Positions 2,827-64,000 of a DNA stretch of 64,000 bases are shown here, one piece after another; the first letter of the stretch is position 1; the number at the start of each line of letters is the position of its first letter. Origin of the DNA: an uncultured Anaerolineales bacterium. GTDB lineage: Bacteria > Chloroflexota > Anaerolineae > CG2-30-64-16. A program made the position numbers and the translations under genes. The notes beneath the pieces were generated by a model that saw nothing but the letters and a program-made list of their open reading frames with translations, was not told where the DNA came from and did not search any database. The stretch spans positions 1,205 through 65,204 of the forward strand of contig CAZELR010000002.1 of the NCBI GenBank assembly GCA_964513075.1. Direction: 5' to 3'.

Positions 2827-2885
2827 GATCGAGGACTTTCTGATGTGCTGCGTGTTACGTGGTGCGTATTGCGTATTGCGTGAGA

Positions 2886-4103: not shown

Positions 4104-4104
4104 C

Positions 4105-5382: not shown

Positions 5383-6283
5383 TTGCTTCTAGCTCCTTTC
5401 TCATCAGTCGGGCAAGACTGCCCGCATCGATTCCTGTCCACAATGCTGCCGCTTGCGCGCCCTGGTGCACCAGCATCCCCAGCCCATCGATGGCTGTGGC
5501 GCCTTGCGACCGGGCCAGCGCCAGCAGCGCGGTGGGCCGGTGATAGATCAGATCGTACACCACCTGGTCCGACCGGAACGCCGCATCCGGCTCCCACGGC
5601 AGCGCATCCCCTGCGTGTAACCCTAAACTGGTCGCGTTGACGATCAGGTCGGCCCAAGGCGCCAGCTTCGGCAAGGCGCCGGGAAACGCATGTGCGCTCA
5701 GCCGGTCAGTCGCATCGGGCAGGGCCGCGCACATTGCTCGACATAATCTATCAGCATGCTCCGGCGTCCGGTTGGCGACGGCCACCTCCGCACCGGCCTC
5801 CAGCAGCGCATAGGCCACCGAGCGTGCCGCGCCGCCAGCGCCGAGGACGATGGCTCGGCGACTTCGCACCCCATGCGCCTGTAAATCCGCCATGAATCCC
5901 GCGCCGTCGGTGTTGTCGCCCAACAGTGAGCCATCGGCCCGCACGATAAGGGTGTTCACAGCCCCCGCCGCCTGCGCCATCGGCGTCAGTTCGTCTAGGA
6001 AGGGCATGACCGCCTGCTTGTGCGGCACGGTAACATTGGCTCCTGCGAAGCCAAGCGCAGCCAGCCCGGCCACAGCCTCGCCCACGCGTTCCGGCGCCAC
6101 CGGCAGCGGCACATAGACCCAATCCAGTCCTAGCGCCGCATACGCCGCGTTGTGCATCGCCGGGCTCAGGCTGTGGTCCACCGGCCAGCCGAGCAGGCCG
6201 ACCAGGCGGGTTGCGCCCGTGATGCGTGATGCGTGATGCGTGGTGCGTGGTGCGTATTGCGTATTGCGTACTGCTTTAGTCAT
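5363..6283 (-). CDS. aroE: Shikimate dehydrogenase
   Basis: [12 protein letters not shown] and GDNTDGAGF motifs plus an NAD(P) Rossmann fold ([15 protein letters not shown]); the ATG at 6283 overlaps the aroA stop (ATGA); the first ~24 aa are encoded by a heptamer repeat array. Confidence 0.85.
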
Positions 6284-7710
6284 TCGTCCATCGCTGATTC
6301 GTCACTCGCCCACTCGATTTCCGCCCCCAGGGACCTCATCGTCTCCACGAAGCTCGGGAACGAGTCACCGATTGCTTCGGCCCCCCGGACGGTGGTCTGA
6401 CCGCCTGCAACCAGGCCGGCCACCGCGAGGGCCATGGCCAGGCGATGGTCATGGTGGCATTTTACCACAGCACCTCTCAGTTGGGTGGGTCCGGTCACAA
6501 TCATGCCGTCCGGTCGTTCCTCGATAGTCGCGCCCATCTTCCGTAGCTCTGTCGCGACCGAAGCAATGCGGTCCGACTCCTTAACTCGCAGCTCACCGGC
6601 CTCGCGCACGACTGTTACGCCCTCCGCCTGCGTCGCGGCTACGGCGAAGATCGGGAACTCGTCGATCGCACGCACGATCAGGTCGCCGGCGGCTTCTGTG
6701 GCGCGCAGGGCGGCGCCCTGAACGGTGATGTCGGCGATCGGTTCGCCTGTCGCGGATGAAGGACGAAGGACGGACGACGAAGGACGAAGGACGGATGACA
6801 AGGTGCTTTCCTGCGGGTCGGCGCTTTCGTCTTTCGTCTTTTGTCTTTCGTCAGTCACGCACATCTTTGCTCCCATCGCCGCCAGCAGATCATACAGCCC
6901 CGTGCGAGTGGGATTGACGCCGACGCCGGGCAGCCGGATCTCTGAGCCCGGCACGATCGCGGCCGCGACCAGTGGAAACGCGGCGGAGGAGAAATCGGCG
7001 GGGATAGTGATGCCGTCGAGAGGCGCGCGCAATGCTTGCCCGCCGCGCAAGCGAACGGTCAGCTCTTGGGACTCGACGGCCACACCGAAGTCGCGTAGCA
7101 TGCGTTCGGTGTGATCGCGCGATGGTCCCGGCTCGTGAAGGATCGTCTCACCTTCAGCGAACAAGCCCGCCAGCAGGATGGCCGACTTGACCTGAGCACT
7201 GGCGACCGGCAGGCGGTAATCGATGCCCCGCAGGTTGCCGCCCTGGATAGTGAGCGGCGGCAGCCGGCCGCCGTCGCGGCCCAGCACCGTCGCGCCCATC
7301 AGCCGCAGCGGCTCGGCGACCCGGCCCATGGGGCGGCGGCGCAGCGGCTCGGTTCCGGTCAGCACGCTGGTGAACGGCTGCCCTGCCAGGAGCCCGGCCA
7401 GCAGCCGGATGGTAGTGCCCGAGCCGGCGCAGTGCAAAACGTCCTCCGGTTCGGTCAAGCCGTGCAGGCCGCGGCCGCGGATGAGCAGATCGGAGCCGAA
7501 ACCTGTCTTCTGGTCGTCAATGCTCACTCCGAGGGCCTGCATACAGCGCAGCGTCGCCATGCACACCTCCGCCGGCACCCAGCCGCGGATGCGCGTCTCG
7601 CCGTCGGCCAACGCGGCCAGGATGATTGCCCGGTGGGTGATCGATTTGTCGCCCGGCACGGTGGCTTGTCCGCGTAACGGGCCGGAAGGGTGGATGATCA
7701 GGTCTCGCAT
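6280..7710 (-). CDS. aroA: 3-phosphoshikimate 1-carboxyvinyltransferase (EPSP synthase)
   Basis: MRDLIIHPSGPLRGQATVPGDKSITHRA matches the AroA N-terminus; start chosen at ATG 7710, although the track ORF extends to 7770 through a GTTGAAT repeat; contains an in-frame hairpin-repeat insertion. Confidence 0.85.
   Translation of the reverse strand: MRDLIIHPSGPLRGQATVPGDKSITHRAIILAALADGETRIRGWVPAEVCMATLRCMQALGVSIDDQKTGFGSDLLIRGRGLHGLTEPEDVLHCAGSGTTIRLLAGLLAGQPFTSVLTGTEPLRRRPMGRVAEPLRLMGATVLGRDGGRLPPLTIQGGNLRGIDYRLPVASAQVKSAILLAGLFAEGETILHEPGPSRDHTERMLRDFGVAVESQELTVRLRGGQALRAPLDGITIPADFSSAAFPLVAAAIVPGSEIRLPGVGVNPTRTGLYDLLAAMGAKMCVTDERQKTKDESADPQESTLSSVLRPSSSVLRPSSATGEPIADITVQGAALRATEAAGDLIVRAIDEFPIFAVAATQAEGVTVVREAGELRVKESDRIASVATELRKMGATIEERPDGMIVTGPTQLRGAVVKCHHDHRLAMALAVAGLVAGGQTTVRGAEAIGDSFPSFVETMRSLGAEIEWASDESAMDE
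6755..6853. repeat. Family A hairpin repeat, copy 2 (inside aroA)
   Basis: gaaggacgaaggacggacgacgaaggacgaagg ... ctttcgtctttcgtcttttgtctttcgtc. Confidence 0.7.
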
Positions 7711-7726
7711 GGTGAGTACCGTATGT

Positions 7727-8605: not shown

Positions 8606-8702
8606 TATTTCCGCCTCACAAGGTTTCCCCCTGGCTCGGTCAGAGACCGGCCAGAGCGAACTGCTCCCCTGCTCCCTTTCTCCCCTGCTCCCCCGCTCCC
8701 CC

Positions 8703-19637: not shown

Positions 19638-22600
19638 TCATCCCAATAATCGTCCCTCCAGCCGTTGCACCCACGCCGCCTGATCGCTGAGCGTGGCGGC
19701 CAGGTGGCCGGGGTCGTGGCCGTAGCCCAGGCGGCGGGCCAGGAACGCAAACTCCTCACTCCCTTCGGGTGGCACGGTGAGGTCCTTGCTGTTGCCGCGC
19801 ACGACCCGCAGCGCGTTGATAAGTTGCTGGAGGAAGATGTGCGCCTGGTGGAGGCGATGGGCGTTTTCCTGTGACAGGAAGCCGTGAGCCGCCAGTGCGG
19901 CGATGGCCGCGCGGGTGTTAGTGAGGCGCAGGTCGGGGTGGACCGCGCCGTGCCGCATCTGCAATCCCTGTACGACGTACTCCACATCCACCAGCCCGCC
20001 CAGGCTGTACTTGGCGTTGAATGCGCCTGGGGTGACGATGTGGCGGAGTTGCCGTTCGCGCATCGCGCGCATGGCGGCCACGTCGAAGCTGCCGGCATCA
20101 TACACGTAGGCATCGCGCAATGCCTCCACCTGCCGGCCCAGGTCGGCGTCTCCAGCGATGGCACGCAGCTTAATGAGGGCCTGCCGCTCATAGGCCCAGG
20201 CGGGACCCTCAGGCGCGAAGTAGCGGCGGAACGCGTCTAGCGGCACGGCAAGACTGCCGGCCTTGCCGTAAGGACGCAGCTCCAGGTCGATCTCAAAGAT
20301 GCCCTCGCGGCGGGCCCAGATCGCGCGGCCGAACTCCGTCACAAGTTTGTCGAAGAATTCAGCGGCGCTGGTGGCACGTGGGCCGCTTGTCTGTCCCGAT
20401 CCGGCGTAGATGAACATCACCTCGATGTCGGACGCGTAACCCAACTCGAAGCCGCCGCATTTGCCCAGCACGCAGACTGCCAACGGGATAGGCGCGCCGT
20501 CTGCCCCGCGCGGCGTGCCGTACTGCGCGGCCAGCTCCTCCTGCACCATGCGTGCGGCCGCTGCGACCACCGTTTCCACCAGGTCGGTCAGCTCGCCGGA
20601 GAACGCGTCGAAGTCCCGCGTATGACCCAGGATATGGCGCATGTCGATGCGGAACATCTCCCGATCCTTGAATGCGTTTAGCGCCGCACGTCGCGCCCCA
20701 AGATCAGGCGCAGTGGCAATTAACGTGCTCAGTTCTGCAGCCAGCTCGACCTTGCGCCGCGGCGCAGCCAGCGCGTCGACATCGGCCACCACCGGGAAGA
20801 GGTTCGCATACTGCATGCGCAGGAAGTCGTCCCAGAGAAACTCGCTGACCCCCAACAGCCGGGCGAGCGCATCCAATACCTCGGGTCGCTCCAGCGAGGC
20901 CAAGTCATCGGGCCATGAGGGTCGGCTGAACAGCTCGCCCAGATACTCGTGGAAGTGCAACAGCGCGGATTCCGGGTTGGGCGAACGCGGCAGCAGGTGG
21001 GTGAAGTGCTTGATGAGCACTGTGGCTGCGCGCAGCTCCCGCTGCCTGTCAGGTGCGGTGATCTTGCCGCCGCGGCTGTCTGTAACAAGGAGCGTGTCCT
21101 GCACCCGGTTGCCTGTCGAGATCACGGACACCTGGCTGATGTGGATGCCGCGCAAGGCCAGGGCGTTGGTGAACTCGTAGAGAAAACCGGGCGTGTCGGC
21201 CGCGCTGATGCGGAGGACGGTGTAGGCTGGCGATGCATCATTGTCGATCTCGATATCTACTGGGGGCAGTGCAGGCGCGGTTGCGATGCTGACCTGCAGC
21301 GCCTCGGCCACGCGTTTGGCCAGTACGCCCTGGGCCATGCGCTGTTCGCGCGCTTGCAGCAGTTCCACCAATGCCAGCAGGTCTGCGCTGTAACGCGGCC
21401 AGATCTTCTTATCAGGCTGCACCGTCGCCACCGGCCGCACCTGGAATACGTCGACAATCTTCCGCCGCGCGTCTGCTGCCTGTCCTCTCTCCCCTGCTCC
21501 CTTGCTCCCCCGCTCCCCAGCTTCCACTCCGGGCTCATACGTATACACATGCCCGTCCACGATGCTGAAGCCGTATGCGAACAACAGCCCGCAGATCACC
21601 GACAGCTCGCCCAGATAGTCGTAGCCAACGATGGTGACGCGCCAGAGATCATCGGCCAGCGGCCGCGCCTCCACCGTAACCGGTGTGGACGCATCCAGCC
21701 GGGCGGCCATGCTCGCGTGTCGCTCGACCTCTGCCGGATCGAAGGTGGCCGCGTAGGAGGGCGCCAGCCGCGCCAGGTGCAAGCGGACCGTGTCCGCCCG
21801 GACCGTGTCCGCCCGGGCTGTGTGCACCTGCAGCGTGTCTTCGTGCGTGGGTGTTGTTTTGGTTGGCTGTTCCGGGATCATGGTCAGGCCTCCGGATGGG
21901 GAGTGGTGTAGGGTCGCGGCTGTGGGCGCCGTCAGATGACGCAGATAGATCGCACGCACTGCCTGGCTGTGCTGCTGGTAGCGCGCAGTGAAATGGACGC
22001 GGGCGTCAGGGCCCTGGAAGCCCAGTCGGCGGGCCAGGTAACGCAGGTCGGCCGGGTTGGCCGGCAGCGTGTGCGTCTGGCGGTAGTCGAGGATCTGCAG
22101 GTAGTGCTCGACCGTGCGCAAGAAAGTGTAGCCCTCCGCCAGGATGCGATGGTCTTCGGCCGGCAAGTAGCCGGCCTCGGCCAGCCGTGCCAGCGCCTCA
22201 CGCGTGTTGCCGGTGCGCAGGCCCGGATGCTCGCGGCCGTGGGCCAGTTGCAGGTATTGGGCCACGAATTCGGCGTCGCGGATGGAACCCTCTCCCAATT
22301 TGACCTCGCCCCAGGTGCGGCCCGCCTCGCGCAGGTGGGCCTCGGTGGCCTGTTTCATGCCGTGCACCTCGACGCGCACCTCCTCCGGGCTTGCGCTGAA
22401 AAGCCGGGGTTCGGCACGGCGCAGGAAGTCCGCCCCGATCTGCTCATCGCCCGCCATAACCCGCGCCTTCAGCAGCGCCTGACGCTCCCAGAGCCGCGCA
22501 TACCGCTCGAGGTAGGCCAGGTAGCCATCGACTGTCGAGACTAGCGGACCGACGCGACCCCAGGGCCGCAGCCGCATGTCGACGCGGTACAAGAATCCTT

Positions 22601-32366: not shown

Positions 32367-32798
32367 GGAGCGAGGCGCCCGGGGTGTCTTGCCTCTTCTC
32401 TGAGGTTTGCGCCCTGAAAAAAGTTGTGCTAGGATAACCCAGCAGAACCCTGCCGTGCTCGTGATGTTCCAACAGCGTTTTGAGCCAACATGAATACAAA
32501 GGGAGCTGGACATCCCGGCCGGAGATGCAATAGCTGCGCACGCCGCTTCGTGTGACGTGCGTCTTAGCAAAGCAGAACTGACCGGCAAGGCACCCACCTG
32601 CGAAAGCAGGTTCAAAACAGTCGAGCACACGGCACAGCGGGGGACTCAGAATATAAACGGCCATTTGGGAATGCCCAGATGGCCGTTTTGAGTTTTGTAA
32701 AACCCTTGACATAGCCTCTCGGATTGTGCTATTCTTGATCCAACAGCCGTCCGTGCTGGTGCCGACCGGCCGATTCCTAGTCTTAATCGAGGAACCCT

Positions 32799-44483: not shown

Positions 44484-44550
44484 GCATCACGCACCACGAG
44501 ATTCTTCGCCCTGCGGCCATCTGCGGATGGTCGGCGCTCAGAATGACATG

Positions 44551-44624
44551 CACTACGCACCGCGCACCACGCAATACGCAGTACGCAATACGCAGTACGC
44601 AATACGCAGTACGCAATACGCTAC
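44551..44624. repeat. Heptamer/14-mer tandem array (ACGCAATACGCAGT x3-4), family C
   Basis: Intergenic between the DUF4037-like gene and mmdB. Confidence 0.7.
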
Positions 44625-48316: not shown

Positions 48317-48402
48317 GGAGAGGTCGCATAGTTGGCCTAGTGCGCGCGTCTCGAAAACGCGTATCCCGGAAGGGATCGTGGGTTCGAATCCCACCCTCTC
48401 CG
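48317..48402 (+). tRNA. tRNA-Ser (anticodon CGA)
   Basis: Cloverleaf with GGAGAGG/CCTCTCC acceptor stem, anticodon loop CTCGAAA, long variable arm, GTGGGTTCGAATCCCAC T-arm. Confidence 0.85.
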
Positions 48403-48604: not shown

Positions 48605-48694
48605 GGAGAGGTCGCATAGCTTGGCCTAGTGCGCACGACTGGAAATCGTGTATCCCGAAAGGGATCGAGGGTTCAAATCCCTCCCTCTCCGCCA
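48605..48694 (+). tRNA. tRNA-Ser (anticodon GGA), CCA encoded
   Basis: Same acceptor stem, anticodon loop CTGGAAA, long variable arm, GAGGGTTCAAATCCCTC T-arm, 3' GCCA; TTATAAT about 12 nt upstream. Confidence 0.85.
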
Positions 48695-50647: not shown

Positions 50648-50928
50648 GTGCGGTCGTGCTAAACGGGGAGCTAGCGGTGCCTTGTAACCCGCAATCCGCT
50701 ATAGCGGGGTCGAAGTCCCTTCTTGAGGGCCTGCGGTCAGCGGGACTGCTTGGCAGGTAAGCGTGGATGGTTGGGTCCTGTGCGGCGGGGGCCTGTGAAA
50801 CTGGTCAGGACCGGAAGGTAGCAGCCATAAGCGGTCACCCTCGGGTGCCACGGGGTTGCCTGGCCTGAGCAAGCCTGTCCGGCAAGCCAAGTGACGAGGA
50901 TCGAAAAAGGGTGCACGACCAGCACTCA
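50648..50928 (+). ncRNA. ffs: Signal recognition particle RNA, long (Bacillus-type, about 280 nt)
   Basis: Conserved domain IV sequence GGTCAGGACCGGAAGGTAGCAGCC; 5' tgcggtcgtgc pairs with 3' gcacgaccagca (closing helix); TTGACA-17 promoter just upstream. Confidence 0.7.
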
Positions 50929-52226: not shown

Positions 52227-55200
52227 CTACTCTGTCACTATGAACACGCCCCCGGCCCCGCGGCCCCACACTTCAGGGAAGTACATCTGCGACGCGGTCG
52301 GCGGCAGGGTCAGGAACGTGCCGGGCAGGCTGGCGCGCGCCTGGTAGGTGAACTGGTAGGTGCCGGGTGCCAGCTCAGTGGCGAAGAGCACCGCCTTCTC
52401 ATCCCGCAGCTCGACGTGGGTGGGGGTCCACCACCAGTCCCACCACGGCGCTGTCTTCGCGGATGTACTGCCCTTCTCCACGTCCGGCCCTTCGGCCGTC
52501 CGGCTGGTGGTGAGCAGGCTGGCGTCCACGCCCTCCAGGCCCGCGGGCAGCGGGTCTTCCACGATCACGTAGTGGCTGGTGTTCGGCACGACTACGGTTA
52601 GCTTGATTTGCAGCACGTCACCGACGCGCGCTTTGTTCACGGGTGCGCACGCAGCGGTTGGGTTCTTGGCGCCGGCCTGCGCCTGCGTGTTGAGGCAATC
52701 GGCCAAGCGCACCTCGCGACTGACGGTCAGGCCCCGGCTCAGCGGCTGGATCTGCTCGGCTGGTTGGTAGGTCCGCAGGTGCGCGGTGTAGTAGAGCTGG
52801 CCGTCGCCGGTCTGACCTGCAGCCGCTGTGCGGCTGAGGACGAGGTCGTTGGTTCTGTCCAGCAGCAGTCGGGCGATATCGGCGCGCATGGTTGCGACCT
52901 GATCGACGGTGTCGGGCGTCACCGCACCCTCGCCCAGCGTCTGGCCGTTGAGCGCCACCTGCCAGGAATAATCCCCCTTCAGTTCGCCGGTCGCAGCCAT
53001 CCACTCGGTCAGCGCGATGATGGACCAGGCGGTTTCCTGGGTGGTCTCCCAGTGATCAGCCTTGCGTGCGGTCATCAGCCAGCGGACGGTGTTCGGTCCC
53101 AGTGCGTTCTCCGGGTCCAGCTTGGCCAGCGCGGCCAGCACGATGGCGGTGCTGCGCGTGTCGGTGTTCATGTTCCAGTAGTCCGGCAGTCCCTCTTCCC
53201 AGTGCGTCGAGGTCGCCGTGACCCGCGCCTCGTGGCCCAGGTCCACCAGCAGGGTCTTGATGCGATCCGGCGCGGCCTCGTCGTTGATCAGATTTAGCGT
53301 CATCGCCAGGTAGGCCTTGCCGAACGCGGCCAGCTTGGCATTTTCGGCGAAGAGCGCGCCCGCCCGGTTCGGTTCCAGTTGGCCGGCCTCGGCCAGCGCG
53401 TAGAGGATGAACGCCTGGCGGTCGAGCTGCCACTCGCGCAGCTCCTTGGGCGCCTTCAGGCTGCCCCGCAGGAACTTGATTCCGCGCTCCAGCACCCCTT
53501 GATCTACGGTGAAGCCGGCCTGCCTGGCTTTCGCCAGGCCGAACACCACGTAGGAGCTGATCGTGACGTTGCTGTCGTCGTTGCTCCACCAGCCCCAGCC
53601 GCCATCGACGTGCTGCTGGCTGTAGATGCGCTGCAAGCCCACCCCCACCTGCTGCGGCAGCTTGGCTTCCAGATCCGGGTTCGAGCGTCCCAGTTTCTTC
53701 AGCGCGGCGTAGCTCACCACGTTGGGCAGGAAGCGGCTCAGGGTCTGCTCGACGCATTCGTAGGGGTAGTGCTCCAGGTATGTCAGCCCGCCCAACATGC
53801 CGGCGGCTAGACTCGGCTCCAGCGTCACGTCCAGCTCGGCGCGGGTCGGGTCGATGCCGCTGGGCAGGCGCACCAGCTCCAGCACATCGGCGCCCAACGC
53901 CACCTGGCCGCTGGTGCCCACCACTTCGGGCGTGCTGTAGCGATAGACCGGCAGCACGACTTTCACCGCGTCGGCCAGCGGCTCCGCGCGGCCCGAGGTG
54001 GTCGCGCTCATGGTGACGGTCACCTCTTCGACGTTCGCCTGCACGGTGACCGGCCAGACGGCCTTGTAGGTGCCGCCCGCTGGCACGCTGACGGTTGCAG
54101 TTGTCGTCTGCGGGGTTTCAAGCCCGGTCGCTGCAAGGCGCACCGTCACTTCCAGTGGGTCGGCGGTGGTGTTGTGGATCACGCCCGCGATCTCGGCCTT
54201 GTCGCCGGCCACGAAGAAGCGCGGCAGCACCGGCCGCACCAGCAGCGCCTTGGTGGCGATGATGTCGGTCTTGGACTGGCCCACCAGCGTGTCGGCGGTG
54301 ATCGCGCGGGCGTCCATGGTCCAGGTGGTCAGGTTGTCGGGCAGCGTCACCTCGACGGATGCCTTGCCGTCCTTGTCGGTGGTCACGGCCGAGCGCCAGA
54401 ACGCGATATCGGGAAACTCGCTGCGCACTGCCAGCAGGCCCATCTCGCCGCCGCCGCCGCCGCCGCCCTTGCCTTCCTCGGCAAGCTGGGCCACCAGCCG
54501 GTCGATGTTCAGGGCCAGGGTCGCACCGGTCTGCACACCCAGGCTGCGCTGGCTGTAGAAGCGGTCGAGCAGGGCCCCCGCGTTGTCCGCGGCCAGCGAC
54601 AGTACTGCCTTATCCACCAGCGCCAGCGACACCTCGGCCGCCACCGGTTTGCCCGCGGCGTCCAGGGTCCGAATGTCCCACGTCACCGTGTCGCGCGGCG
54701 CGAATTGAGCTGGAACTGAATCCTGACCCCTGACTTCTGTCTCCTGTCCCCTGGGGGTCAATACCACCTGCAACTCCTTGTCGGCCACCGACACCTTGAG
54801 CTGAATCAGGCCGACCTTGAAGGACGGCGAGGGGCTGGTGGCGTCGATGCCTTTCATGATGATCAGCGACACGAACGCGTTGGGCGCCATCTCGGCGGTG
54901 ATGGGCAGTTCCAGCACCTCGCTGTTACCGGCTAGCTCGATCACTCGGTGGCTGAGCACTCGGCCGCGTTCGATCGTCAGCAGCGCCTTCACCTTGCCCT
55001 GGTAGGGGCTGGGGGCCAGGATCTCGGCCGTGTCACCTACTTTGTACTCGTCTTTGTCGGCGACCAGTTTGATGCGGTCGTTGTTCTCTTGTCGCCACGG
55101 CACGAAGTCACGGCCGCTGACCCAGACGTAGGCTGCGCTGCGCAGTGCATGGCCCTGCTCGTCCCGTGCGCTGGCCTCGATCTTGTACTCGCCGGACTTT

Positions 55201-58200
55201 TTCGGGGTCCAGGCTAGCACGGCCGCGCCTTGGGCATCGGTTGTAAGGGTCTCAGTCAGCACCGCAGTCTTTATGGGTCGCGTGACCCAGTAGAAGCGGC
55301 CGTCTTCGGCTTTCTCCTGCACGCTCTTCCATTCGATCTGGCTGACCACAGCGGTCACTTCGACCCCGGGCACGGGTGCGCTCTGCGCGTCCACGGTGAT
55401 GATGTCGACCTGATTCTCCTGATCGGTGGTCCCCACGTAGCCGCGCGGGCTCACGCCGATGTAGAACTGGCCCTTGTGCACCACCGCAGTGGCCTGGGTC
55501 GAGACCGCCTGGTTGTTCAGGTCCTCGACGGTGAGGTCAAAGGTGAAGCGCTGGCTGCCCGGGAACTTCGCAATGTCGGCCGGCGCGCTGAAGGTGAAGC
55601 GGCCTTGGGCGTCGGTGCGGCCCTCGCCCTGGCTGAGCTGCCCGCCCGATGGACCGGTGCGCGTCACGTTCCACCACTCCCAATCACTGAAGCTCCAATA
55701 TCCCTCGCCTTGATAGTCGAAGGACGCGTCATTGCTCAACAGCGTCCAGCGCACCTTGCCGTTCTTCACCGGCCCGCCGAAGAAGTAATTGGCCTGCAAC
55801 GTCACACTGATCTGTTCGCCCTGGGTGTATTCGGGCTTGTCGGTCACCGCGCTCAGCTCGTATTCGGGCTTGCGGTACTCGGCCACCTGGAAGCCGACGC
55901 CCGGCGACACCGACTCGGTCAGTTGCACCGATAGGTAGTAGTAGCCCAGGGATGCATCCGGACCCAGCTCGAGCTTGCCGTCGGTCGCGCCCAGCGCATC
56001 CAGGAGCTGGCTCGTCTGGACCAGCGCATTGCCCTGGTCGTCATTGATGGTGACGGTGACGGGCTGACCCGGCGCAGGCAGGGAATACAGTGCGTCGTTG
56101 TCACGGCGGATGATGGCCTTCCAGTACACGGTTTGGCCAGGGCGGTAGATGGGACGATCGGTGTAGACATAACCGACATAGGGTTGAGCCTGTGCGCCGC
56201 CAGATATGCTGAAGTCCCACGGGCCGATGCCGTCCGACCAGTTGGTGGACGCCACACCAAACCCGCCGGCTTCGGTTGTCGCCAGCGCCAGCAGCGGCTC
56301 CCACGGGTTGCGCACGGCGGCCAGCTTGATGGTGGCGACGCCATCTTCGTCCGTCGTCGCCGTGAGATCGGTATCTGCGTTATCGGTGAAGTGCACCTGT
56401 GCGCCGGACACCGGCTGGCCTGTCTTTAGGTCGGTGACCCACGCCAGCGCTGCATCGCTGCTGGCCTTGAGGGTGACGTTGAGATCGGTGCGAATGATCA
56501 GTTGGCGCGGGGGCCTCTGGTTGTTCGACAGGGAGCCGCCCAACTCCAGCCAGTAGATGCCGGGCGCCAGCGCTGCGCCCTGATCATCCAGCAGTGACTC
56601 GCGCAGGAAGCCCGTCTCGTTAGCCTTCACGGTGCTGGTTACCGCCCACTGGCGCACGCGCGCCGCGGCCGACGGCCGATACTTGTCCCACGCCTCCCAG
56701 TACTCGCCGCCGGTCACCGCGATGAGCTCATTGGGCGTCAGCCGGTAGAGGTCGAAGCGCACCTCCGGCGTGTTGCGGTAGACCACCACGGCCTGGGTCT
56801 CGGTGTACGCGCTGTAAGTGCCTACCTGGCCCTGGTTGTTGAGCTGCAGAATCGGATCCAGGTTGCCCGTGCGGAAGCGCAGCACGTTGTCCTCACCCAG
56901 GGTGTTGCCGTAGGGATCGGCCACCTTGCCCGAAAGGGTCACGATGTAATCGGTCGCCGGCAGCTTGGTGAAGTCGAGATAAAGATAGTTCTCGTACTCG
57001 TTGTAATAGGTGTAGACCTGGGTCGGCTTGGGCAGGATCGTGATCGTACCGCTGATGAAGGTCGCAGGATTCATCGGGCCCGCGAACTCGAAGCGGACGC
57101 CGCCGGCAGGCTCGAACGATTTGGCGCCGTTTGCAGGCTGGGTCTTGGTCACCTTGGGCAGCGGCACGGTGCTGAACACGAAACGGCGGCCCGGCGTGTC
57201 CTGCAACTGGCCCACTTTGCTGATGGCCAATGCGGTCGGTGCGACGGCCGCCGTATACCCGGTGCCGAATTTCAGCACCTGCGCCGGCTTGAATCCCAGC
57301 TCGGTGGCATCGGCGTTCCAGGTGAAGGTCCCGGCTACTGCATCGCCCTTGACTTCGGTCAGCGTAAACGCGGCCTCGGTGCTCGGCTTGTCCATCGGCA
57401 TCGAGAACGTGACCGTGATCGGCTTTTCGATGCGCACGTTGGTGGGCGATTCGGGCGTCCAACGCAGCACGGTCGGCTCCGTGGTGCGGAAGCCAAAGGT
57501 ATAAGGGGCGCCCAGCACGCCGCCCGTGGTGTCTTCCAGGCCTGCTGTGACCGTCACGCTGTACTGCATGGAGGCGGCCAATCCGGCCAGCGGCGTGAAG
57601 CGATAGATGCTGGTGCTGATCCATTCCCCCTTGCCTTCCAGCGTCGGGGTGATGATCAGCGGTGCGGGCAGCCCGGCCTGCTCACCTCCACCGGTCAACG
57701 GCACCACGGGCCGGTTGAATGCGATGGTGATTGGGATGTCCACCGGCACGCCTTCGGTCTTATCGGCCGGTTGGGTGCTGGTCACTTCCAGGAAGCCCAC
57801 CGTCTTGAACTTGGTTGCGACCGGCTGCAGGAGCTGCAAGCCGCTGGCGCTCTTCGCACTGGCCGCCACCGCGATGCGGTATTCCAGGCCGCGCTCCATT
57901 CGTTCTGTGGGGGTGAAGGTCAACCGGTCACCCTTCACCTCGACGTCGCCCGCCACCTTTGGCTCAATGCTGAACGCAGCGCTGGTGCTGGCCGGGTCCA
58001 TGGGCTGGTCGAAGGTGACGATCACCGGCGCGGCGATGATTTGTTCCTCCCCGCGATCGGGCTTGACGCTGATCACGGTGGGCGGCAGCGGCGGCCGCGT
58101 GGGGGTAGGAGCCGGTACATCGGTGGGCGCAGCCGTGGGCGCGTCAGCTATCGGAGAAAGCGCCTGGCTGGTCTGCGGCGCGGCAGGAGCCGACGTTGCG

Positions 58201-58295
58201 GCCGGCGCGGCCGGCTGGACCGCCGGCGAACACGCAGCAAGGAATACCATCATGAGAGTGGCGATGATGGAGATTGTGCGTTGGTGCTGATGCAT
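52227..58295 (-). CDS. Bacterial alpha-2-macroglobulin family lipoprotein
   Basis: About 2020 aa; lipobox LAAC after the signal peptide; MG-domain repeats; thioester-region motif CVEQ (YPYECVEQTLSRF); start ATG 58295 preceded by GGGAGG; the track ORF starts 27 nt earlier at a TTG. Confidence 0.85.
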   Translation of the reverse strand: MHQHQRTISIIATLMMVFLAACSPAVQPAAPAATSAPAAPQTSQALSPIADAPTAAPTDVPAPTPTRPPLPPTVISVKPDRGEEQIIAAPVIVTFDQPMDPASTSAAFSIEPKVAGDVEVKGDRLTFTPTERMERGLEYRIAVAASAKSASGLQLLQPVATKFKTVGFLEVTSTQPADKTEGVPVDIPITIAFNRPVVPLTGGGEQAGLPAPLIITPTLEGKGEWISTSIYRFTPLAGLAASMQYSVTVTAGLEDTTGGVLGAPYTFGFRTTEPTVLRWTPESPTNVRIEKPITVTFSMPMDKPSTEAAFTLTEVKGDAVAGTFTWNADATELGFKPAQVLKFGTGYTAAVAPTALAISKVGQLQDTPGRRFVFSTVPLPKVTKTQPANGAKSFEPAGGVRFEFAGPMNPATFISGTITILPKPTQVYTYYNEYENYLYLDFTKLPATDYIVTLSGKVADPYGNTLGEDNVLRFRTGNLDPILQLNNQGQVGTYSAYTETQAVVVYRNTPEVRFDLYRLTPNELIAVTGGEYWEAWDKYRPSAAARVRQWAVTSTVKANETGFLRESLLDDQGAALAPGIYWLELGGSLSNNQRPPRQLIIRTDLNVTLKASSDAALAWVTDLKTGQPVSGAQVHFTDNADTDLTATTDEDGVATIKLAAVRNPWEPLLALATTEAGGFGVASTNWSDGIGPWDFSISGGAQAQPYVGYVYTDRPIYRPGQTVYWKAIIRRDNDALYSLPAPGQPVTVTINDDQGNALVQTSQLLDALGATDGKLELGPDASLGYYYLSVQLTESVSPGVGFQVAEYRKPEYELSAVTDKPEYTQGEQISVTLQANYFFGGPVKNGKVRWTLLSNDASFDYQGEGYWSFSDWEWWNVTRTGPSGGQLSQGEGRTDAQGRFTFSAPADIAKFPGSQRFTFDLTVEDLNNQAVSTQATAVVHKGQFYIGVSPRGYVGTTDQENQVDIITVDAQSAPVPGVEVTAVVSQIEWKSVQEKAEDGRFYWVTRPIKTAVLTETLTTDAQGAAVLAWTPKKSGEYKIEASARDEQGHALRSAAYVWVSGRDFVPWRQENNDRIKLVADKDEYKVGDTAEILAPSPYQGKVKALLTIERGRVLSHRVIELAGNSEVLELPITAEMAPNAFVSLIIMKGIDATSPSPSFKVGLIQLKVSVADKELQVVLTPRGQETEVRGQDSVPAQFAPRDTVTWDIRTLDAAGKPVAAEVSLALVDKAVLSLAADNAGALLDRFYSQRSLGVQTGATLALNIDRLVAQLAEEGKGGGGGGGEMGLLAVRSEFPDIAFWRSAVTTDKDGKASVEVTLPDNLTTWTMDARAITADTLVGQSKTDIIATKALLVRPVLPRFFVAGDKAEIAGVIHNTTADPLEVTVRLAATGLETPQTTTATVSVPAGGTYKAVWPVTVQANVEEVTVTMSATTSGRAEPLADAVKVVLPVYRYSTPEVVGTSGQVALGADVLELVRLPSGIDPTRAELDVTLEPSLAAGMLGGLTYLEHYPYECVEQTLSRFLPNVVSYAALKKLGRSNPDLEAKLPQQVGVGLQRIYSQQHVDGGWGWWSNDDSNVTISSYVVFGLAKARQAGFTVDQGVLERGIKFLRGSLKAPKELREWQLDRQAFILYALAEAGQLEPNRAGALFAENAKLAAFGKAYLAMTLNLINDEAAPDRIKTLLVDLGHEARVTATSTHWEEGLPDYWNMNTDTRSTAIVLAALAKLDPENALGPNTVRWLMTARKADHWETTQETAWSIIALTEWMAATGELKGDYSWQVALNGQTLGEGAVTPDTVDQVATMRADIARLLLDRTNDLVLSRTAAAGQTGDGQLYYTAHLRTYQPAEQIQPLSRGLTVSREVRLADCLNTQAQAGAKNPTAACAPVNKARVGDVLQIKLTVVVPNTSHYVIVEDPLPAGLEGVDASLLTTSRTAEGPDVEKGSTSAKTAPWWDWWWTPTHVELRDEKAVLFATELAPGTYQFTYQARASLPGTFLTLPPTASQMYFPEVWGRGAGGVFIVTE

Positions 58296-58426
58296 GTGAG
58301 CCTCCCAGTCCTTTTCATTCAAAGCGCGAGTGATACTACAACTGTTCCGTCATTGTACCGCGCTAGACGCCTCGTGCTTCTGCAAAGTTCCATCCAATTC
58401 CCCTGATTTCCTGTTGTTTTGTTGAC

Positions 58427-58459
58427 ACACCCTAAGGGTCTCGAAGACCCTTAGGGTGT
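58427..58459. repeat. Perfect 14-bp palindrome with 5-nt loop between pbpC and the alpha-2-macroglobulin gene
   Basis: acaccctaagggtc-tcgaa-gacccttagggtgt; no U-tract. Confidence 0.65.
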
Positions 58460-58464
58460 AGGCG

Positions 58465-61317
58465 TTACTCTACAAACACAATCACTTCCGCGCTCCGCAC
58501 CTCCTGCCCATCCGCCAGGCGCGCGATAGCCTGGAAGGTGTGTTGGCCCTTGACTAACGTCCACCAGGCGGTGTGCTCCGGACCCGGCGCAGGGGCCAGG
58601 GGTGCGCCGTCGGCCCAGAGAACGATCGTGCCATCCAGGCCCGGCGCCGCCAACGCAGTGATCGGGATCGCCTGCGCGCTGAGCGGCAGCCCCGGGTTGA
58701 TGCGATAGGTGCGGTTGGGATCAGGGCTGGTCAGTCGAAGGTTAAAGGTTGAAGGTTGAAGGTCGGATGCTCGGTTTTGGATTTTGGATGGCACAGTTTC
58801 CAGTCCGCCATCCGCCATCTGCCATCTGCCGTCTGCCAGTTGCGGGATGTTGTTGGCTCGGGCCCAAGCCTGGTATGTGGGCGGAAGCTGCCAGATCGTC
58901 TGCGGTGCGACGTGTTGGGGTGGGGTCGTCTCGTCAGCGGGCTGGCCGGTGCGGGTGTCGATCAGTACGCGCAGGTGCGAGCGGTCGACCTCGGTGGGTT
59001 CCGTCCCCGCGATGAACCATTCCAGGCGGCGTTGGGGGCAGGGGATGGTGGATGGTTGACGTCGGGGGTTGGATGTTGGATCTTGTAGGCTGCCGCTGCC
59101 CTGCACCCCTGCACCCTTGCTCCCCTGCTCCCCTGCTTGCATCGGCAGCAGCCCCGAGTCCGCGCACACCTCCACCTGCACCAGGCCGTCGGGGATCTCG
59201 AAATCGCTGGCGGGGATATCGCGCAGCACTGCGAGCATGAAGTCGCGCCAGATGGGGCCGGCGCCGCTGATGCCGCTGACATCCTTCATGGGTGTGTTGT
59301 CCGCGTTGCCCACCCAGACGCCGGCGACCACTGCCGGTGTGTAGCCCACGGTCCAGTTATCGCGCCAGTCGGTGGAGGTGCCGGTCTTGGCCGCGGCCGG
59401 CCGGCCCAGCTCTAGCACGTTGCCCCGCCCGAACGCCGGCAGCCGCGCGTTGTTGTCGCTGAGGATGTCGGTAATCAGGTAGGCGACGCGGGGATCCAGG
59501 GCCATGGTTGAAGGTTGAAGGTTGAAGGTTGAAAGATCTGAACCTTTAACCTTCAACCTTTCAACGTGTGACCCGCTCTCGTAGATCGTCTCGCCATCCA
59601 AACTCTCCACCCGCTCAATAGCGTAGGGCCTGACGCGCTGGCCGCCGTTGGCGAATGCGGCGTAGGCCGCGGTCAAATCGAGCAGCCGCACCTCGCCGCC
59701 GCCGAGGGTCAACGATAGACCGTAATGGGTTGAAGGTTCAAGGTTCAAGGTTGAAGGTTGACTCGCGGATGTGGACTGCGAAGCATCAGCCTGTGCCCCC
59801 TTGCCCACTGCCCCCTGATCACTGTCCCCTGACCCCTGACGACTGACCACTGACCGCCGTCCACTGCCCTCTGCTTCCCACGGAATCCCCAGCCGCGCGG
59901 CCTGCTCGACCAGTGCGTCGATGCCGATGTGGTCCAGGGTGATCACGGCGGGAATATTGTAGGAATTGGCCAGCGCGGCGCGCACCGAGACGGGGCCGTG
60001 GTAGATCCGGTCGTAATTGTTGGGGACATACGGCTCGCCTTCAGCGGTCAGAAAGGCGGTTCGCAAGTCGGCGATCACTGTGGCCGCGGTCCAGGGCGCC
60101 TGGCCAACTGCCCGGCTGCGTTCGGGGTCCAGCGCGGCCGCGTAGGTGAGCGGTTTGATGGCGGAGCCGGGCTGGCGGAGGCTGAGGCTGGCATTGACCG
60201 CGCCGCTGATCGCCGGGGCGAAATAATCCGGGCTGCCCACCATGGCCAGCACCGCGCCGGTAGCGGGATCGACCGCCACTAATGCGGCGTTCTCGGCGCG
60301 GCGCGCGGGATCGGCGGCCGCGTCACACGTCACGCCGGGGACCGCGTTGGGAAGCGACGCGCAGGGGCGGAGCTGTGCCAGCCGGCGCTGTACGGCATCT
60401 TCGGCCGCCTGCTGCCAGTCGAGGTCAAGAGTGGTGGTTACCCGCAGGCCGCCGAGGCTCAGTTGCTCTGCAGATAGCAGCGATTCAAGTTGGCCCTGCG
60501 CCCACATCACGAAGTGCGGGGCGGCGATCGGAAAGGGGGTGCCGGCATAGGCCAGGCGTTCCCTTTTTGCGTCCTGAGCTTGGCCTGGAGTAAGGTACCC
60601 TTGCTCGATCATCAGCCTCAGCACCGTGGCCTGCCGCTCCTGCGCGATCTCCGAGTTTTCGATGGGATTGTAGCCGGCCGGGTATTGCGGCAGCCCGGCC
60701 AGCAGCGCGCACTGGGCCAGGTCCAGCTCAGACGCATGCATGCCGAAATAGGCCTGGGCCGCGGCCTCGATCCCCACGGCAAAGTGGCCGTAGTAAGTGT
60801 CGTTCAGGTACAGCGCAAGGATCTCGTCTTTGGAGTACCGCGTCTCCAGCCGCAGCGCCAGCCATGCCTCGCGCAGCTTGCGCCGCAGCGTCTGTTCGTT
60901 TCGCTCTTCGGCAGATAGGTACAACGTGCGCGCAACCTGCTGGGTAAGCGTGCTGGCTCCCGACATGGCGCCGCCGCGCCAATTTTGCCAGGCAGCGCGG
61001 CCGATCGCGATGAGGTCCACGCCCGGATGCTCGTAGAAGCGGCTGTCTTCGGTGGCGACCGTAGCCTGCTGGCAGGCCAGGGGAATCTGATTTAGCGCCA
61101 GCGGTATGTGCTTGCTGCCAGCCGGGTCGATCACTTCGTAGAGCAAGCGATCGTGGCGGTCGGTGATCAGGATGCTGGACCTGGCCGCGGGCGCGTCAAT
61201 GTTGCCCGTTGCCCGGCCCGGGTCGGGCAGGTCGGCCAGCAGGACAAAGTAGCCCAGGAGCGCGCCAGCCAGCAACGCTCCCAGGGGGGCCAGGTGCCAC
61301 CAGCGAACGCGATGCAT
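58465..61317 (-). CDS. pbpC: Penicillin-binding protein 1C-like bifunctional transglycosylase/transpeptidase
   Basis: GT51 motifs (ATEDSRFYEHPGVD, GASTLTQQ, RKLREAWLALRLE); transpeptidase SxxK region (GSAIKP); C-terminal PbpC-like domain; several repeat-encoded in-frame inserts. Confidence 0.85.
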   Translation of the reverse strand: MHRVRWWHLAPLGALLAGALLGYFVLLADLPDPGRATGNIDAPAARSSILITDRHDRLLYEVIDPAGSKHIPLALNQIPLACQQATVATEDSRFYEHPGVDLIAIGRAAWQNWRGGAMSGASTLTQQVARTLYLSAEERNEQTLRRKLREAWLALRLETRYSKDEILALYLNDTYYGHFAVGIEAAAQAYFGMHASELDLAQCALLAGLPQYPAGYNPIENSEIAQERQATVLRLMIEQGYLTPGQAQDAKRERLAYAGTPFPIAAPHFVMWAQGQLESLLSAEQLSLGGLRVTTTLDLDWQQAAEDAVQRRLAQLRPCASLPNAVPGVTCDAAADPARRAENAALVAVDPATGAVLAMVGSPDYFAPAISGAVNASLSLRQPGSAIKPLTYAAALDPERSRAVGQAPWTAATVIADLRTAFLTAEGEPYVPNNYDRIYHGPVSVRAALANSYNIPAVITLDHIGIDALVEQAARLGIPWEAEGSGRRSVVSRQGSGDSDQGAVGKGAQADASQSTSASQPSTLNLEPSTHYGLSLTLGGGEVRLLDLTAAYAAFANGGQRVRPYAIERVESLDGETIYESGSHVERLKVKGSDLSTFNLQPSTMALDPRVAYLITDILSDNNARLPAFGRGNVLELGRPAAAKTGTSTDWRDNWTVGYTPAVVAGVWVGNADNTPMKDVSGISGAGPIWRDFMLAVLRDIPASDFEIPDGLVQVEVCADSGLLPMQAGEQGSKGAGVQGSGSLQDPTSNPRRQPSTIPCPQRRLEWFIAGTEPTEVDRSHLRVLIDTRTGQPADETTPPQHVAPQTIWQLPPTYQAWARANNIPQLADGRWQMADGGLETVPSKIQNRASDLQPSTFNLRLTSPDPNRTYRINPGLPLSAQAIPITALAAPGLDGTIVLWADGAPLAPAPGPEHTAWWTLVKGQHTFQAIARLADGQEVRSAEVIVFVE
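58735..58848. repeat. GGTTGAA heptamer array plus ggattttggatgg and ccgccatctgcc mini-arrays, family B, inside pbpC
   Basis: Related copies at 59506-59566 (perfect hairpin), 59727-59762 and 62748-62862, and near 7723-7760 and 39721-39740. Confidence 0.7.
59506..59566. repeat. Family B perfect hairpin (ggttgaagg x4 / ccttcaacc) inside pbpC
   Basis: ggttgaaggttgaaggttgaaggttgaaagatctgaacctttaaccttcaacctttcaac. Confidence 0.75.
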
Positions 61318-62541: not shown

Positions 62542-64000
62542 TCAGTGGACAAGCTTACCGGATTCCGGCTCGGCCGCAACCAAATCGGCGCCACTGGCGT
62601 CTGTCCAAAGCCGGCGCATCCCCTCCGACGTTGCCAGCAGTTCATCCAGCGTGCCTTCGGCTTCCACGCGGCCATCCAGCAGCACGATGATGCGATCGGC
62701 CCGGCGCAGCACCGCGCGGCGGTGGGAGACGGCAAGAACGGTCGCGGGGGTTGAAGGTTGGAAAGTTGAAGGCGCAAGGTCGTCATCACCCCCCGAGCCT
62801 TCATTTCCGTCTTTAAACCCTGAACCTTCGACCTTAAACTTTGAACCTTGAACCTTCAACCCCACGCGCTCCCACAGGATCTCCTCCGTCTGCACGTCCA
62901 GCGCGCTGGAGAGGTCATCGAAGACCAACAGCTCAGGCGCGCGCGCGAACATGCGCGCCGCGGCTGCGCGCTGCACCTGGCCGCCGCTCAGCCGCACCCC
63001 GCGCGGTCCGACGAGGGTGTCCAGGCCATGCTCCAACGTGGCGATGTCGGGTTCCAGCACCGCGCGCCAGATGGCATACTGTATCTCACCCTCTATCCCC
63101 ATCAGTACATTCTCTCGCAGCGTCGCGCTGAACAGGCGCGGCACCTGGGCGGTGTAGGCGGCGCACGGCCGGCCCCGCGGCGGCGAAGCCAACAGCGCGG
63201 CCGGATCGACCACAGGCTCGCCGTCCCACACGATCTCGCCCGCGTCGCGGGCCAGCAGGCCCAGCACGGCGCGCAGCAGCGTCGTCTTGCCCGAGCCGAT
63301 CTGCCCGGTGATGACCACGAAGCTGCCGCGGGGCACGCTGAAGGTGACGTCCCGCACGCCGCGATCGGCACCTGGATGGAAACAGGTGAGGTGGCGCACT
63401 TCCAGGAGGGGCGGCAGAGGCCCAGTTCCGGGAGAAGACGGCGTCACCCTGAGCGAGTCTGCGGCGCAAGGTTGGCTGCGGCTCAAGCTCAGCGAAGGGT
63501 CTTGTTGGCCGGGTTGAGATCCTTCGCTGGGGTCTCGGCGTGACTGCTTTTGGGCCGACAACCCGCTCAGGGTGACTTTCTGGTGGGTCATGGGGTGATG
63601 TTCCACCAGTACCTCCGGCGGCTCATCCGGGATCAGTTCGACCAGGCGGCTGATGGCCACCTCCTGCTGCTTGATGTCGCCGACGAAGCTGCCCAGGTAC
63701 GACGGTAGGTCGGTGGTGAACCACAGGTAGTAGGTGAACAGCGCAAAGTCACCCACGGTGAACGCACCCTGTGTCATCGCCTGCCCCGCCAGCAGCAGCA
63801 TCACCCCAACACCGACCACGACTGCGATGCTGTTCATAGAGAAGGCGAGCTCTTCCAGCACCGCGGCCCGGATCGTGGCCCGGCTGCGCGTCTCGGCCAG
63901 CCGGCTGAAATGGGCGACGGTGTGCGTCTCGGCGCCGGCCACTTTCACCGCCTGGACCGCGCCGAACAGCTCGGCTAGGAAGCCGATCACCGCGTCCCCG
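62542..64000 (-). CDS. ABC exporter, fused permease/ATPase; N-terminus outside the window
   Basis: Walker [10 protein letters not shown], signature LSGGQVQR, Walker B LLVFDD; ORF remains open at the window edge; carries a repeat-encoded in-frame insert before the H-loop. Confidence 0.8.
62748..62862. repeat. Family B hairpin with large loop inside the ABC transporter gene
   Basis: ggttgaaggttggaaagttgaagg ... ccttcgaccttaaactttgaaccttgaaccttcaacc. Confidence 0.7.

Follow-up and report, generated by a model that had tools for sequence, protein, structure and literature searches.

A 64-kb stretch of DNA from an uncultured Anaerolineales bacterium, hereafter referred to as the window (64,000 nucleotides, the part of the source genome that was covered), contains pbpC, an intact gene for a class A penicillin-binding protein (PBP) of the PBP1C type, which harbors repeat-derived in-frame inserts at four sites. 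These inserts are probably translated heptanucleotide simple-sequence-repeat (SSR) DNA that is lodged in four permissive loops or linkers of a functional enzyme. It also appears likely that they belong to a larger population of arrays in this Anaerolineae lineage, members of which reside in loops of housekeeping enzymes and in some intergenic DNA. Each array is composed of short head-to-tail units of 7 nt (one array in pbpC has 8-nt units), and some arrays are paired as inverted arrays or hairpins.

In general, bacterial repeat DNA is regarded as intergenic, and in-frame colonization of conserved genes is, to our knowledge, known mainly from Rickettsia. Here, a free-living lineage of high GC content tolerates many presumably translated inserts in core enzymes that build peptidoglycan, belong to the shikimate pathway or regulate nitrogen metabolism. 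Insertion sites are reused across a protein family, and arrays stay perfect while nearby synonymous sites saturate.

The pbpC gene and its four inserts

A preliminary description of the window had proposed a PBP1C-type gene with four repeat-derived in-frame inserts, and this proposal is borne out by an intact open reading frame (ORF), by the Pfam domains and by alignment to orthologs. The ORF comprises 950 codons without an internal stop and encloses all arrays, with the inserts sitting in its 3' two-thirds. Its product is colinear with homologs from end to end, including the C-terminal domain behind all four inserts, and the ORF is not frameshifted. Pfam recognizes the domains Transgly (aa 67-236, 200 bits), Transpeptidase (aa 345-694) and BiPBP_C (PF06832, aa 859-931), the latter by a narrow margin (28.1 bits versus a cut-off of 26.8); BiPBP_C is also precomputed for most homologs. 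Moreover, the glycosyltransferase (GT51) motifs EDSRFYEHPG (aa 90) and GASTLTQQ (aa 120) as well as the transpeptidase motifs SAIK (385), SYN (452) and KTG (644) are present and occupy invariant or nearly invariant columns among 106 homologs, while the top Foldseek matches of the predicted fold are solved class A PBPs.

With regard to NCBIfam, the protein scores 446.8 bits with TIGR02073 (PBP_1c; cut-off 494.2), the match being split into three stretches, and 494.5 bits with PBP_1a_fam (cut-off 508.75). We infer that the inserts cause the break-up of the PBP_1c match. Since the score lies below the PBP_1c cut-off, the protein is termed PBP1C type here and not a certified equivalog. The assignment is supported by the gene for a bacterial alpha-2-macroglobulin (A2M) that follows pbpC on the same strand, a pairing which is typical of pbpC and is kept in two orthologous loci, L081 and L082. 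In the NCBI collection, P0001 is 100% identical to the pbpC product and forms a cluster with a single member; the named homologs come from metagenome-assembled genomes of Chloroflexi or Anaerolineae. The spacer between pbpC and the A2M gene holds, a few bases past the pbpC stop, a perfect 15-nt inverted repeat with a 3-nt loop (58427-58459; ACACCCTAAGGGTCT / AGACCCTTAGGGTGT), which is not built of heptamers and could be a terminator or an attenuator.

The arrays were located by Tandem Repeats Finder and a separate period scan, both of which place them where they had been described (Table 1). When at most three mismatches are allowed, (GGTTGAA)3 has 10 matches in the window versus none in 100 shuffles, and 16 arrays of period 7 stand against 0 to 4 for each other period from 4 to 12. 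Hence, the arrays exceed chance expectation. The three peptides quoted initially, LNLEPSTHYG, STFNLQPSTMALD and GSGDSDQGAVGKGAQ, were all retrieved from the pbpC translation. Other parts of the preliminary description need adjustment: the segment 58735-58848 is GGTTGAA-based merely in its first ~27 nt, the remainder consisting of two other unit families, and the segments 59041-59140 and 59795-59878, set apart as low-complexity arrays, do exist but are themselves arrays of period 7 and period 8.

The same applies to secondary structure, as hairpins had been assigned to the GGTTGAA arrays as a group. A hairpin is indeed formed at 59506-59566 (site 2), where RNA folding yields a minimum free energy of -40.1 kcal/mol (z = -6.3) that was reached by none of 200 shuffles, whereas sites 1, 3 and 4 (z of +0.24, +0.23 and -0.64, respectively) display no excess structure. 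Site 2 is the only hairpin in pbpC, while each of the other three sites joins arrays whose unit families are unrelated. A single hairpin family behind all four inserts was considered and rejected.

Table 1. Positions of pbpC, the adjacent A2M gene and the repeat arrays in the window (TRF/PS, Tandem Repeats Finder / period scan)
Feature	Position	Strand	Details	Basis
pbpC	58465..61317	-	intact 950-aa class A PBP gene, PBP1C type	ORF and translation
A2M gene	52227..58322	-	2031 aa, directly downstream of pbpC
pbpC insert site 1	59719..59877	-	aa 481-533; CAGTGGT/CAGGGGT-type array 59794-59873, unique 32-nt spacer, TTCAACC array 59728-59761
Array, site 1	59728-59761		GGTTGAA x4.9	TRF/PS
Array, site 1	59794-59873		CCACTGA-type x8.9	TRF/PS
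pbpC insert site 2	59500..59577	-	aa 581-606; true hairpin, arms 59541-59565 (degenerate sense GGTTGAA, VERLKVKGS) and 59506-59533 (perfect (TTCAACC)4, STFNLQPST)
Array, site 2	59506-59533		GGTTGAA x4.0, 100% matches	TRF/PS
Array, site 2	59541-59565		AACCTTTC x3.4, inverted degenerate partner of 59506-59533
pbpC insert site 3	59041..59142	-	aa 726-759; 8-mer GGGGAGCA array 59095-59137 (translated as QAGEQGSKGAGVQG) and AACATCC-type array 59043-59085
Array, site 3	59043-59085		GGATGTT x6.1, 69% matches	TRF/PS
Array, site 3	59095-59137		8-mer GCTCCCCT x5.4	TRF/PS
pbpC insert site 4	58732..58842	-	aa 826-862, linker before BiPBP_C; arrays GGCAGAT 58804-58838 (WQMADG), ATCCAAA 58775-58789, TTCAACC 58737-58763 (LQPSTFNL)
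Array, site 4	58737-58763		GAAGGTT x3.9	TRF/PS
Array, site 4	58775-58789		TTTTGGA x2.1	TRF/PS
Array, site 4	58807-58838		GCCATCT x4.6	TRF/PS
Hairpin in ABC ATPase gene	62750..62862	-	GGTTGAA/TTCAACC, in-frame; arms 62813-62862 and ~62750-62776; z = -2.8
Hairpin in aroK-aroB fusion	2207..2290	-	GACGAAA/TTTCGTC-type, in-frame, aa 207-235; z = -2.8
Arrays in aroK-aroB	1517-1554, 2863-2881		ACGCAAT/ACGCAAC; aa 453-463 and aa 10-16, respectively
Hairpin in aroA	6754..6852	-	GACGAAA-type, in-frame, aa 307-339
Array at 5' end of aroE	6218..6274	-	CGTGATG/TGCGTAT, codons 4-22 of longest ORF
Array upstream of annotated aroA start	7723-7760		CGTGATG/TGCGTAT-like
Array in glnE	21489..21522	-	8-mer GGGGAGCA, in-frame, aa 647-658, EAGERGSKGAGE
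Intergenic array	8661-8701		copy of 8-mer GGGGAGCA
Array in A2M gene	54722..54753	-	CAGGGGT-type, in-frame, aa 1190-1201; conserved in L081 ortholog
Intergenic array	44550..44621	+	ACGCAAT/ACGCAGT; 14-mer ACGCAATACGCAGT x3.8 at 44569-44621, 100% matches

Reading frame, structure and turnover of the inserts

Since 7 is coprime to 3, a tandem heptamer encodes one cyclic heptapeptide in any frame: three units amount to 21 nt, and the array thus passes through all three codon phases. For instance, (TTCAACC)n yields FNLQPST in all frames, while (GGTTGAA)n yields G*RLKVE and runs into a TGA whichever frame is used. The frame of a tandem heptamer array is undefined, and only the strand counts. The motif PSTFxxxPST, which had been taken as a sign of one selected frame, loses this meaning, as the recurring peptide requires no frame selection; the argument is general and extends to any repeat with a unit length coprime to 3. 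The shared PSTFNLQ peptide results instead from this arithmetic together with stop-codon avoidance, because the TGA in each frame of (GGTTGAA)n allows a clean array within a gene to survive only in the TTCAACC sense. Among the sense TTCAACC arrays of pbpC, the one at site 2 shows 100% matches and the two others 92% and 90%. For the sense GGTTGAA arms, the matches amount to 84% (with an indel) at site 2 and to 71-76% in the ABC ATPase gene; no TGA is left in them, and their units are altered to GGTTCAA, GGTCGAA, GGTTAAA or GTTGAAA. Such mutated, stop-free arms suggest that ribosomes would have to read through the inserts, which are accordingly presumed to be translated. In addition, an inverted pair of arrays keeps its arm order on both strands, so that its arms encode almost identical peptides whichever way the pair is oriented.

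For a comparison of the insert sites, 114 homologs of at least 800 aa were aligned. Distant homologs (~50% identity, 830-860 aa) possess short conserved links at sites 1 and 3, and their sites 2 and 4 are short or expanded only sporadically. Closer homologs are nearly all filled at the same four sites with differing, visibly periodic contents, such as WKLEAGSWKLEAG...SSNQLPASSNQLPA, WQMADSGRQMADSG...AISHQPPAISHQPP, IADCRLPIADC...NPQSAIRNPQS and RNTQYAIRNTQYA. The lengths range from 8 to 78, 14 to 81, 4 to 108 and 0 to 103 aa at sites 1 to 4, respectively, and self-identity of the inserts at a lag of 7 aa amounts to 15.8% versus ~8% at other lags over all 114 sequences, while a control region is flat. 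Alignment to orthologs, which had been suggested as a check, thereby shows that, exactly where the window protein carries its inserts, relatives have no array or a different one, and the four sites are hot spots across the whole protein family. Relative to insert-free orthologs, the window protein has 63 versus 18 aa at site 1, 43 versus 26 at site 2, 57 versus 26 at site 3 and 59 versus ~50 at site 4. The earlier figure of about 150 added residues therefore holds for the sum of the four insert segments (150 aa), whereas the net gain is ~100 aa.

Mapping onto structure, likewise proposed beforehand, led to a consistent result. An AlphaFold (AF2) model built from 106 sequences reached a mean predicted local distance difference test (pLDDT) score of 83.8 and a predicted template modeling (pTM) score of 0.80; an earlier model from 30 sequences (mean pLDDT 64) could not place the inserts, its transpeptidase domain being too weakly predicted. 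In the 106-sequence model, confidence is lowest in coils that belong to the four inserts, and no other extended coil of low confidence occurs. The pLDDT lies below 50 at residues 487-531, 585-587, 739-743 and 838-856, and 10-residue blocks over the inserts average 34-61 (34-53 at site 1, 42-52 at site 4). Moreover, solved PBP1a sequences align on either side of site 1 with a gap in between, and polar or disorder-promoting residues make up 73% of the inserts versus 51% of the remaining protein. Hence, the inserts are predicted to be unstructured.

The turnover of the arrays was followed in the DNA of three orthologous loci, L081, L082 and L083. Among the matches listed in the contig scan for related loci, relatives were at most 59% identical, and closer loci were fetched singly. 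The closest relative, L081, is 81% identical to the window protein over aligned columns; its site 1 insert is homologous and differs by 21 nt, i.e., three units, while its arrays at sites 2, 3 and 4 are different from those of the window. On the other hand, L082 (68% identical) carries the GGTTGAA hairpin of the window at site 2, including an identical, perfect 28-nt (TTCAACC)4 arm. As third codon positions are only 51% identical between the two, this perfection indicates that arrays are actively homogenized. At site 3, all three loci have a GGCAGAT/CCATCAG hairpin in place of the window's arrays, and the CCATCAG array has grown to 105 residues in L083; at site 4, the arrays of all three are again unlike those of the window. 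By comparison, the A2M genes of the window and L081 are 89% identical with almost no indels. Judging from these alignments, arrays vary between relatives by whole units.

In L083, pbpC is flanked by long intergenic 8-mer arrays (GACGCGGG, GCGAATCA; 7966-8178 and 13125-13253), so that period-8 units constitute a second, smaller population. Furthermore, some PBP homologs (P0083, P0087, P0095 and P0103) appear out of frame after an array, and in the aro clusters of the loci L204 and L206 the genes for DAHP synthase, dehydroquinase and aroK/aroB are called in fragments. Such calls could stem from real frameshifts through unit slippage or from sequencing errors at repeats.

Arrays elsewhere in the window and in related sequences

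In total, ~15 array sites were found in the window, ~10 of them internal to coding sequences, 3 start-proximal (within the first 22 codons of the longest ORFs) and 2 intergenic. Given that ~88% of the window is coding, these positions show that arrays are not excluded from genes. Beyond pbpC, in-frame arrays occur in five Pfam-verified genes: aroK-aroB, aroA, glnE, the A2M gene and an ABC ATPase gene. The last of these bears the pbpC-type hairpin in-frame, as had been noticed before. This hairpin is placed between the ABC_tran core and the SHR H-loop (ORF from 62542 to the window end), its sense GGTTGAA arm is degenerate and stop-free, and the L081 ortholog has the same hairpin. A second low-complexity stretch of the ABC protein (62542-63990), rich in S, P and Q and situated at aa ~133-195 between the membrane and ATPase parts, may be a decayed repeat insert.

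The aroA hairpin takes the place of ~3 residues of the solved EPSP synthase 3RMT. Its site is hypervariable, ranging from 23 to 79 residues across 120 AroA relatives, which carry paired peptides at this position (e.g., DERRKTK...SSFVLRPSS and GDAETRRHGD...ASPRPRVPAS) and in some cases one-arm stubs. In AroA orthologs, the hairpin arms have a GACG/CGTC core in common, yet their complementarity is no more than partial. Each arm is homogenized separately, and in L206 both arms even have the same sense. A search for compensatory changes between the arms in AroA orthologs gave no evidence of stem selection. A second AroA site is filled with (GGTTGAG)n arrays in L204 and L205 (FQVEVRVE, FEVEVEVKAEVE) and is empty in the window. 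With respect to the aroA start, NCBI lets the protein (P0121) begin 20 codons downstream of the start of the longest ORF, past the array at 7723-7747. Both aroA and the aroK-aroB fusion are part of a cluster for aromatic amino acid synthesis (1042-9716; aroK-aroB fusion, chorismate synthase, tyrS, aroE, aroA, tyrA and DAHP synthase) with heptamer arrays in or beside several genes, and the hairpins of these two genes are of one family.

Individual units recur within the window: TTCAACC and ACGCAAT each occupy 4 sites, and GACGAAA forms 2 hairpins. The unit of the intergenic array 44550-44621, which belongs to the ACGCAAT family, is also met in coding positions of the window and of many relatives, where it is read as RNTQYA. 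Sites of the same unit lie at a median distance of 4.6 kb, compared with 35 kb under label permutation (P ~0.03-0.05, from a small sample), which hints at short-range template switching or conversion. No Rfam family was found at any array of the window, and Pfam searches over 41 of its ORFs, essentially its full gene set, detected no transposase, recombinase, reverse transcriptase or other mobile-element gene. Rfam does identify a 6S RNA, two tRNAs and a large bacterial signal recognition particle RNA (32444-32647, 48317-48402, 48605-48691 and 50654-50918), none of which overlaps an array. Proteins with Schlafen/AlbA_2 (39928-42312) and caspase (Peptidase_C14; 18629-19537) domains are possibly products of conflict-system genes, apparently unrelated to the repeats.

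In 1.3 Mb of related loci, 78 arrays of period 7 were counted versus at most 24 for any other period. They comprise ~40 distinct canonical units and are largely confined to a few lineages, 56 of the 84 related sequences being devoid of any. At the level of metagenomes, exact (TTCAACC)3 was found in at least 120 contigs, whose GC contents of 0.30 to 0.69 imply a taxonomically mixed origin. In the 80 of these contigs examined as loci L084-L163, 58 of the 80 arrays situated away from contig ends lie outside ORFs. By this measure, the TTCAACC unit is widespread far beyond the present lineage and is generally intergenic. A literature search for heptamer repeats in Chloroflexi or Anaerolineae returned no report, which is no proof of novelty.

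Origin of the arrays and relation to known systems

The favored explanation, i.e., translated SSR DNA in permissive loops, would combine several processes. Slipped-strand mispairing would make arrays grow, shrink and become homogenized, while hairpins with repeated arms could re-pair out of register. At other loci, arrays would be seeded or replaced through copying, for example by template switching or by ectopic conversion, perhaps mostly over short distances. Selection would act only as a filter for a total length divisible by 3, for the lack of a sense-strand stop and for a permissive loop. Peptides like FNLQPST, WQMADGR and GEQGSKGA would consequently be by-products of the DNA unit and not designed protein modules.

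Several points weigh against this explanation. Slippage alone fails to account for identical units at unlinked genes, given ~1170 possible canonical heptamers, and for the recurrence of units across genomes with saturated synonymous divergence; unit recurrence across genes and genomes therefore demands some copying or a strongly biased choice of units. Moreover, translation of the inserts is deduced from ORF continuity and stop avoidance, the coding and intergenic densities are rough values from 64 kb of the source genome, and four sites in one enzyme of a non-essential type could hint at function and not at tolerance.

A transposon-like mechanism is the main rival, although we judge it unlikely. 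[quoted passage not shown] It would accommodate the occurrence of same-unit hairpins in unrelated genes (GACGAAA-type in aroK-aroB and aroA, GGTTGAA-type in pbpC and the ABC ATPase gene), the recurrence of unit families across genomes, the presence of other families at the same site in a close relative, the clustering of same-unit sites and the one-arm stubs of AroA relatives, which resemble footprints of excision or deletion. However, the copies share no loop or internal sequence, their arms vary in copy number, and the four hairpins lack any visible target-site duplication. Furthermore, ~40 units among 78 arrays argue against one sequence-specific enzyme, the Pfam survey of the window found no transposase, recombinase or reverse transcriptase, and the AroA arms are homogenized singly and only partly complementary.

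That the inserts are functional and selected, be it as variable surface loops, as contingency loci in which a 7-nt unit acts as an on/off switch, or as regulatory intragenic RNA or DNA structures, is rather improbable. An intragenic unit not divisible by 3 does represent the classic layout of a contingency locus, and 7- and 8-nt units inside ORFs are what was found here. The clustering of four sites in one extracytoplasmic enzyme, their strong hypervariability among relatives, the very stable hairpin at site 2 and the persistence of perfect arrays despite saturated synonymous divergence would also fit a function. On the other hand, the same arrays occur in AroA, AroB and GlnE, cytoplasmic biosynthetic enzymes in which loop variability or on/off switching would serve little purpose. 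The DNA unit dictates the peptides, which unrelated proteins share without change. Of the four PBP inserts, three fold no better than shuffled sequence, and AroA orthologs do not maintain complementarity between their hairpin arms.

Finally, an assembly or binning artefact or a decaying pseudogene was rejected as scarcely credible. In its favor, the genome was assembled from a metagenome, tandem repeats are prone to errors, and gene calls close to arrays are fragmented or out of frame in some relatives. However, no array exceeds 80 nt, which is inside read length, the ORF is intact through four inserts with all catalytic motifs present, the same four sites are occupied in independent assemblies (L081, L082, L083 and more than 80 proteins), and the site 1 insert is homologous in L081.

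Going beyond the reading of the pbpC inserts as tolerated SSR DNA, we tentatively raise the possibility that Anaerolineae host an undescribed type of coding-compatible selfish DNA. Self-homogenizing 7-nt arrays and inverted arrays, which yield nearly the same harmless peptide in any frame or orientation, might colonize permissive loops of essential proteins throughout the class and replace one another there by means of a copy mechanism, for which local template switching and a dedicated enzyme are candidates. If the pattern is confirmed genome-wide, the arrays would serve as a natural map that shows which loops of well-studied enzymes are permissive, and as a clean system for the spread and homogenization of repeats under the constraint of an open reading frame. 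It would also call for caution in annotation, as curated models miss their cut-offs and gene callers may report frameshifts at arrays.

Among the known systems, the host protein itself compares well with PBP1C of the Escherichia coli type, with which it shares the transglycosylase, transpeptidase and BiPBP_C domains and the adjoining alpha-2-macroglobulin gene (yfhM in E. coli). It differs in the order of pbpC followed by the A2M gene, in its score below the PBP_1c cut-off and in the ~100 extra residues in four loops.

With regard to the repeats, MITEs as well as REP sequences and bacterial interspersed mosaic elements with their REP-associated tyrosine transposases (RAYT) are similarly short, hairpin-forming, multi-copy and non-coding by origin. 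REPs are extragenic by definition. In contrast to MITEs, the arrays have no terminal inverted repeats around a conserved core and no target-site duplication; inverted arrays are present at 4 of the ~15 window sites, and no duplication is visible at their borders. Unlike for MITEs and the REP-RAYT system, no transposase is encoded in the 64-kb window. Some MITEs do create in-frame fusions, as stated in a review (PMC10969869).

The short tandemly repeated repetitive (STRR) heptamers of cyanobacteria such as Calothrix and Nostoc are alike in that several tandem heptamer families coexist in a filamentous bacterium, but they are cyanobacterial and built of different units. STRRs have been reported mainly between genes, and we know of no description of in-frame hot spots in housekeeping enzymes. 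Work on the STRR repeats is cited in PMC4692102.

A closer relationship exists to the heptanucleotide SSRs of prokaryotes. PMC4679880 and PMC4692102 describe heptanucleotide units as the commonest long SSRs in prokaryotes, with slippage proposed as their cause (Mrazek et al. 2007, cited therein). They name GGGNATC in Xanthomonas and Nostoc and TAACTGA in Beggiatoaceae, and portray these heptamers as mostly intergenic and under-represented in coding regions; that forward TAACTGA repeats contain stops in all three frames has already been observed there. The present arrays agree with such SSRs, whose units span 5-11 nt and which exceed chance in length and frequency, in being dispersed head-to-tail 7-nt arrays of a few to ~10 copies, with whole-unit variation and a dominant period of 7. 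On the other hand, they are set apart by the location of most window sites (~10 of ~15) in-frame inside conserved genes, by the coexistence of many unit families, often as inverted hairpin pairs, and by their Anaerolineae host.

The RPEs are palindromic repeats situated in-frame within conserved genes (reviewed in PMC10969869). Both systems represent selfish-looking palindromic DNA that appears as an extra peptide in unrelated metabolic genes at positions compatible with the fold. RPEs, however, measure ~150 bp and possess both a consensus for the family and a conserved peptide. Here, conservation is confined to the 7-nt unit: length and loop vary freely, a palindrome is absent from three of the four PBP inserts, and the peptide is independent of frame. 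Hence, in a clade for which no report was found, the present case joins the unit structure of heptamer SSRs with the in-gene lifestyle of RPEs.

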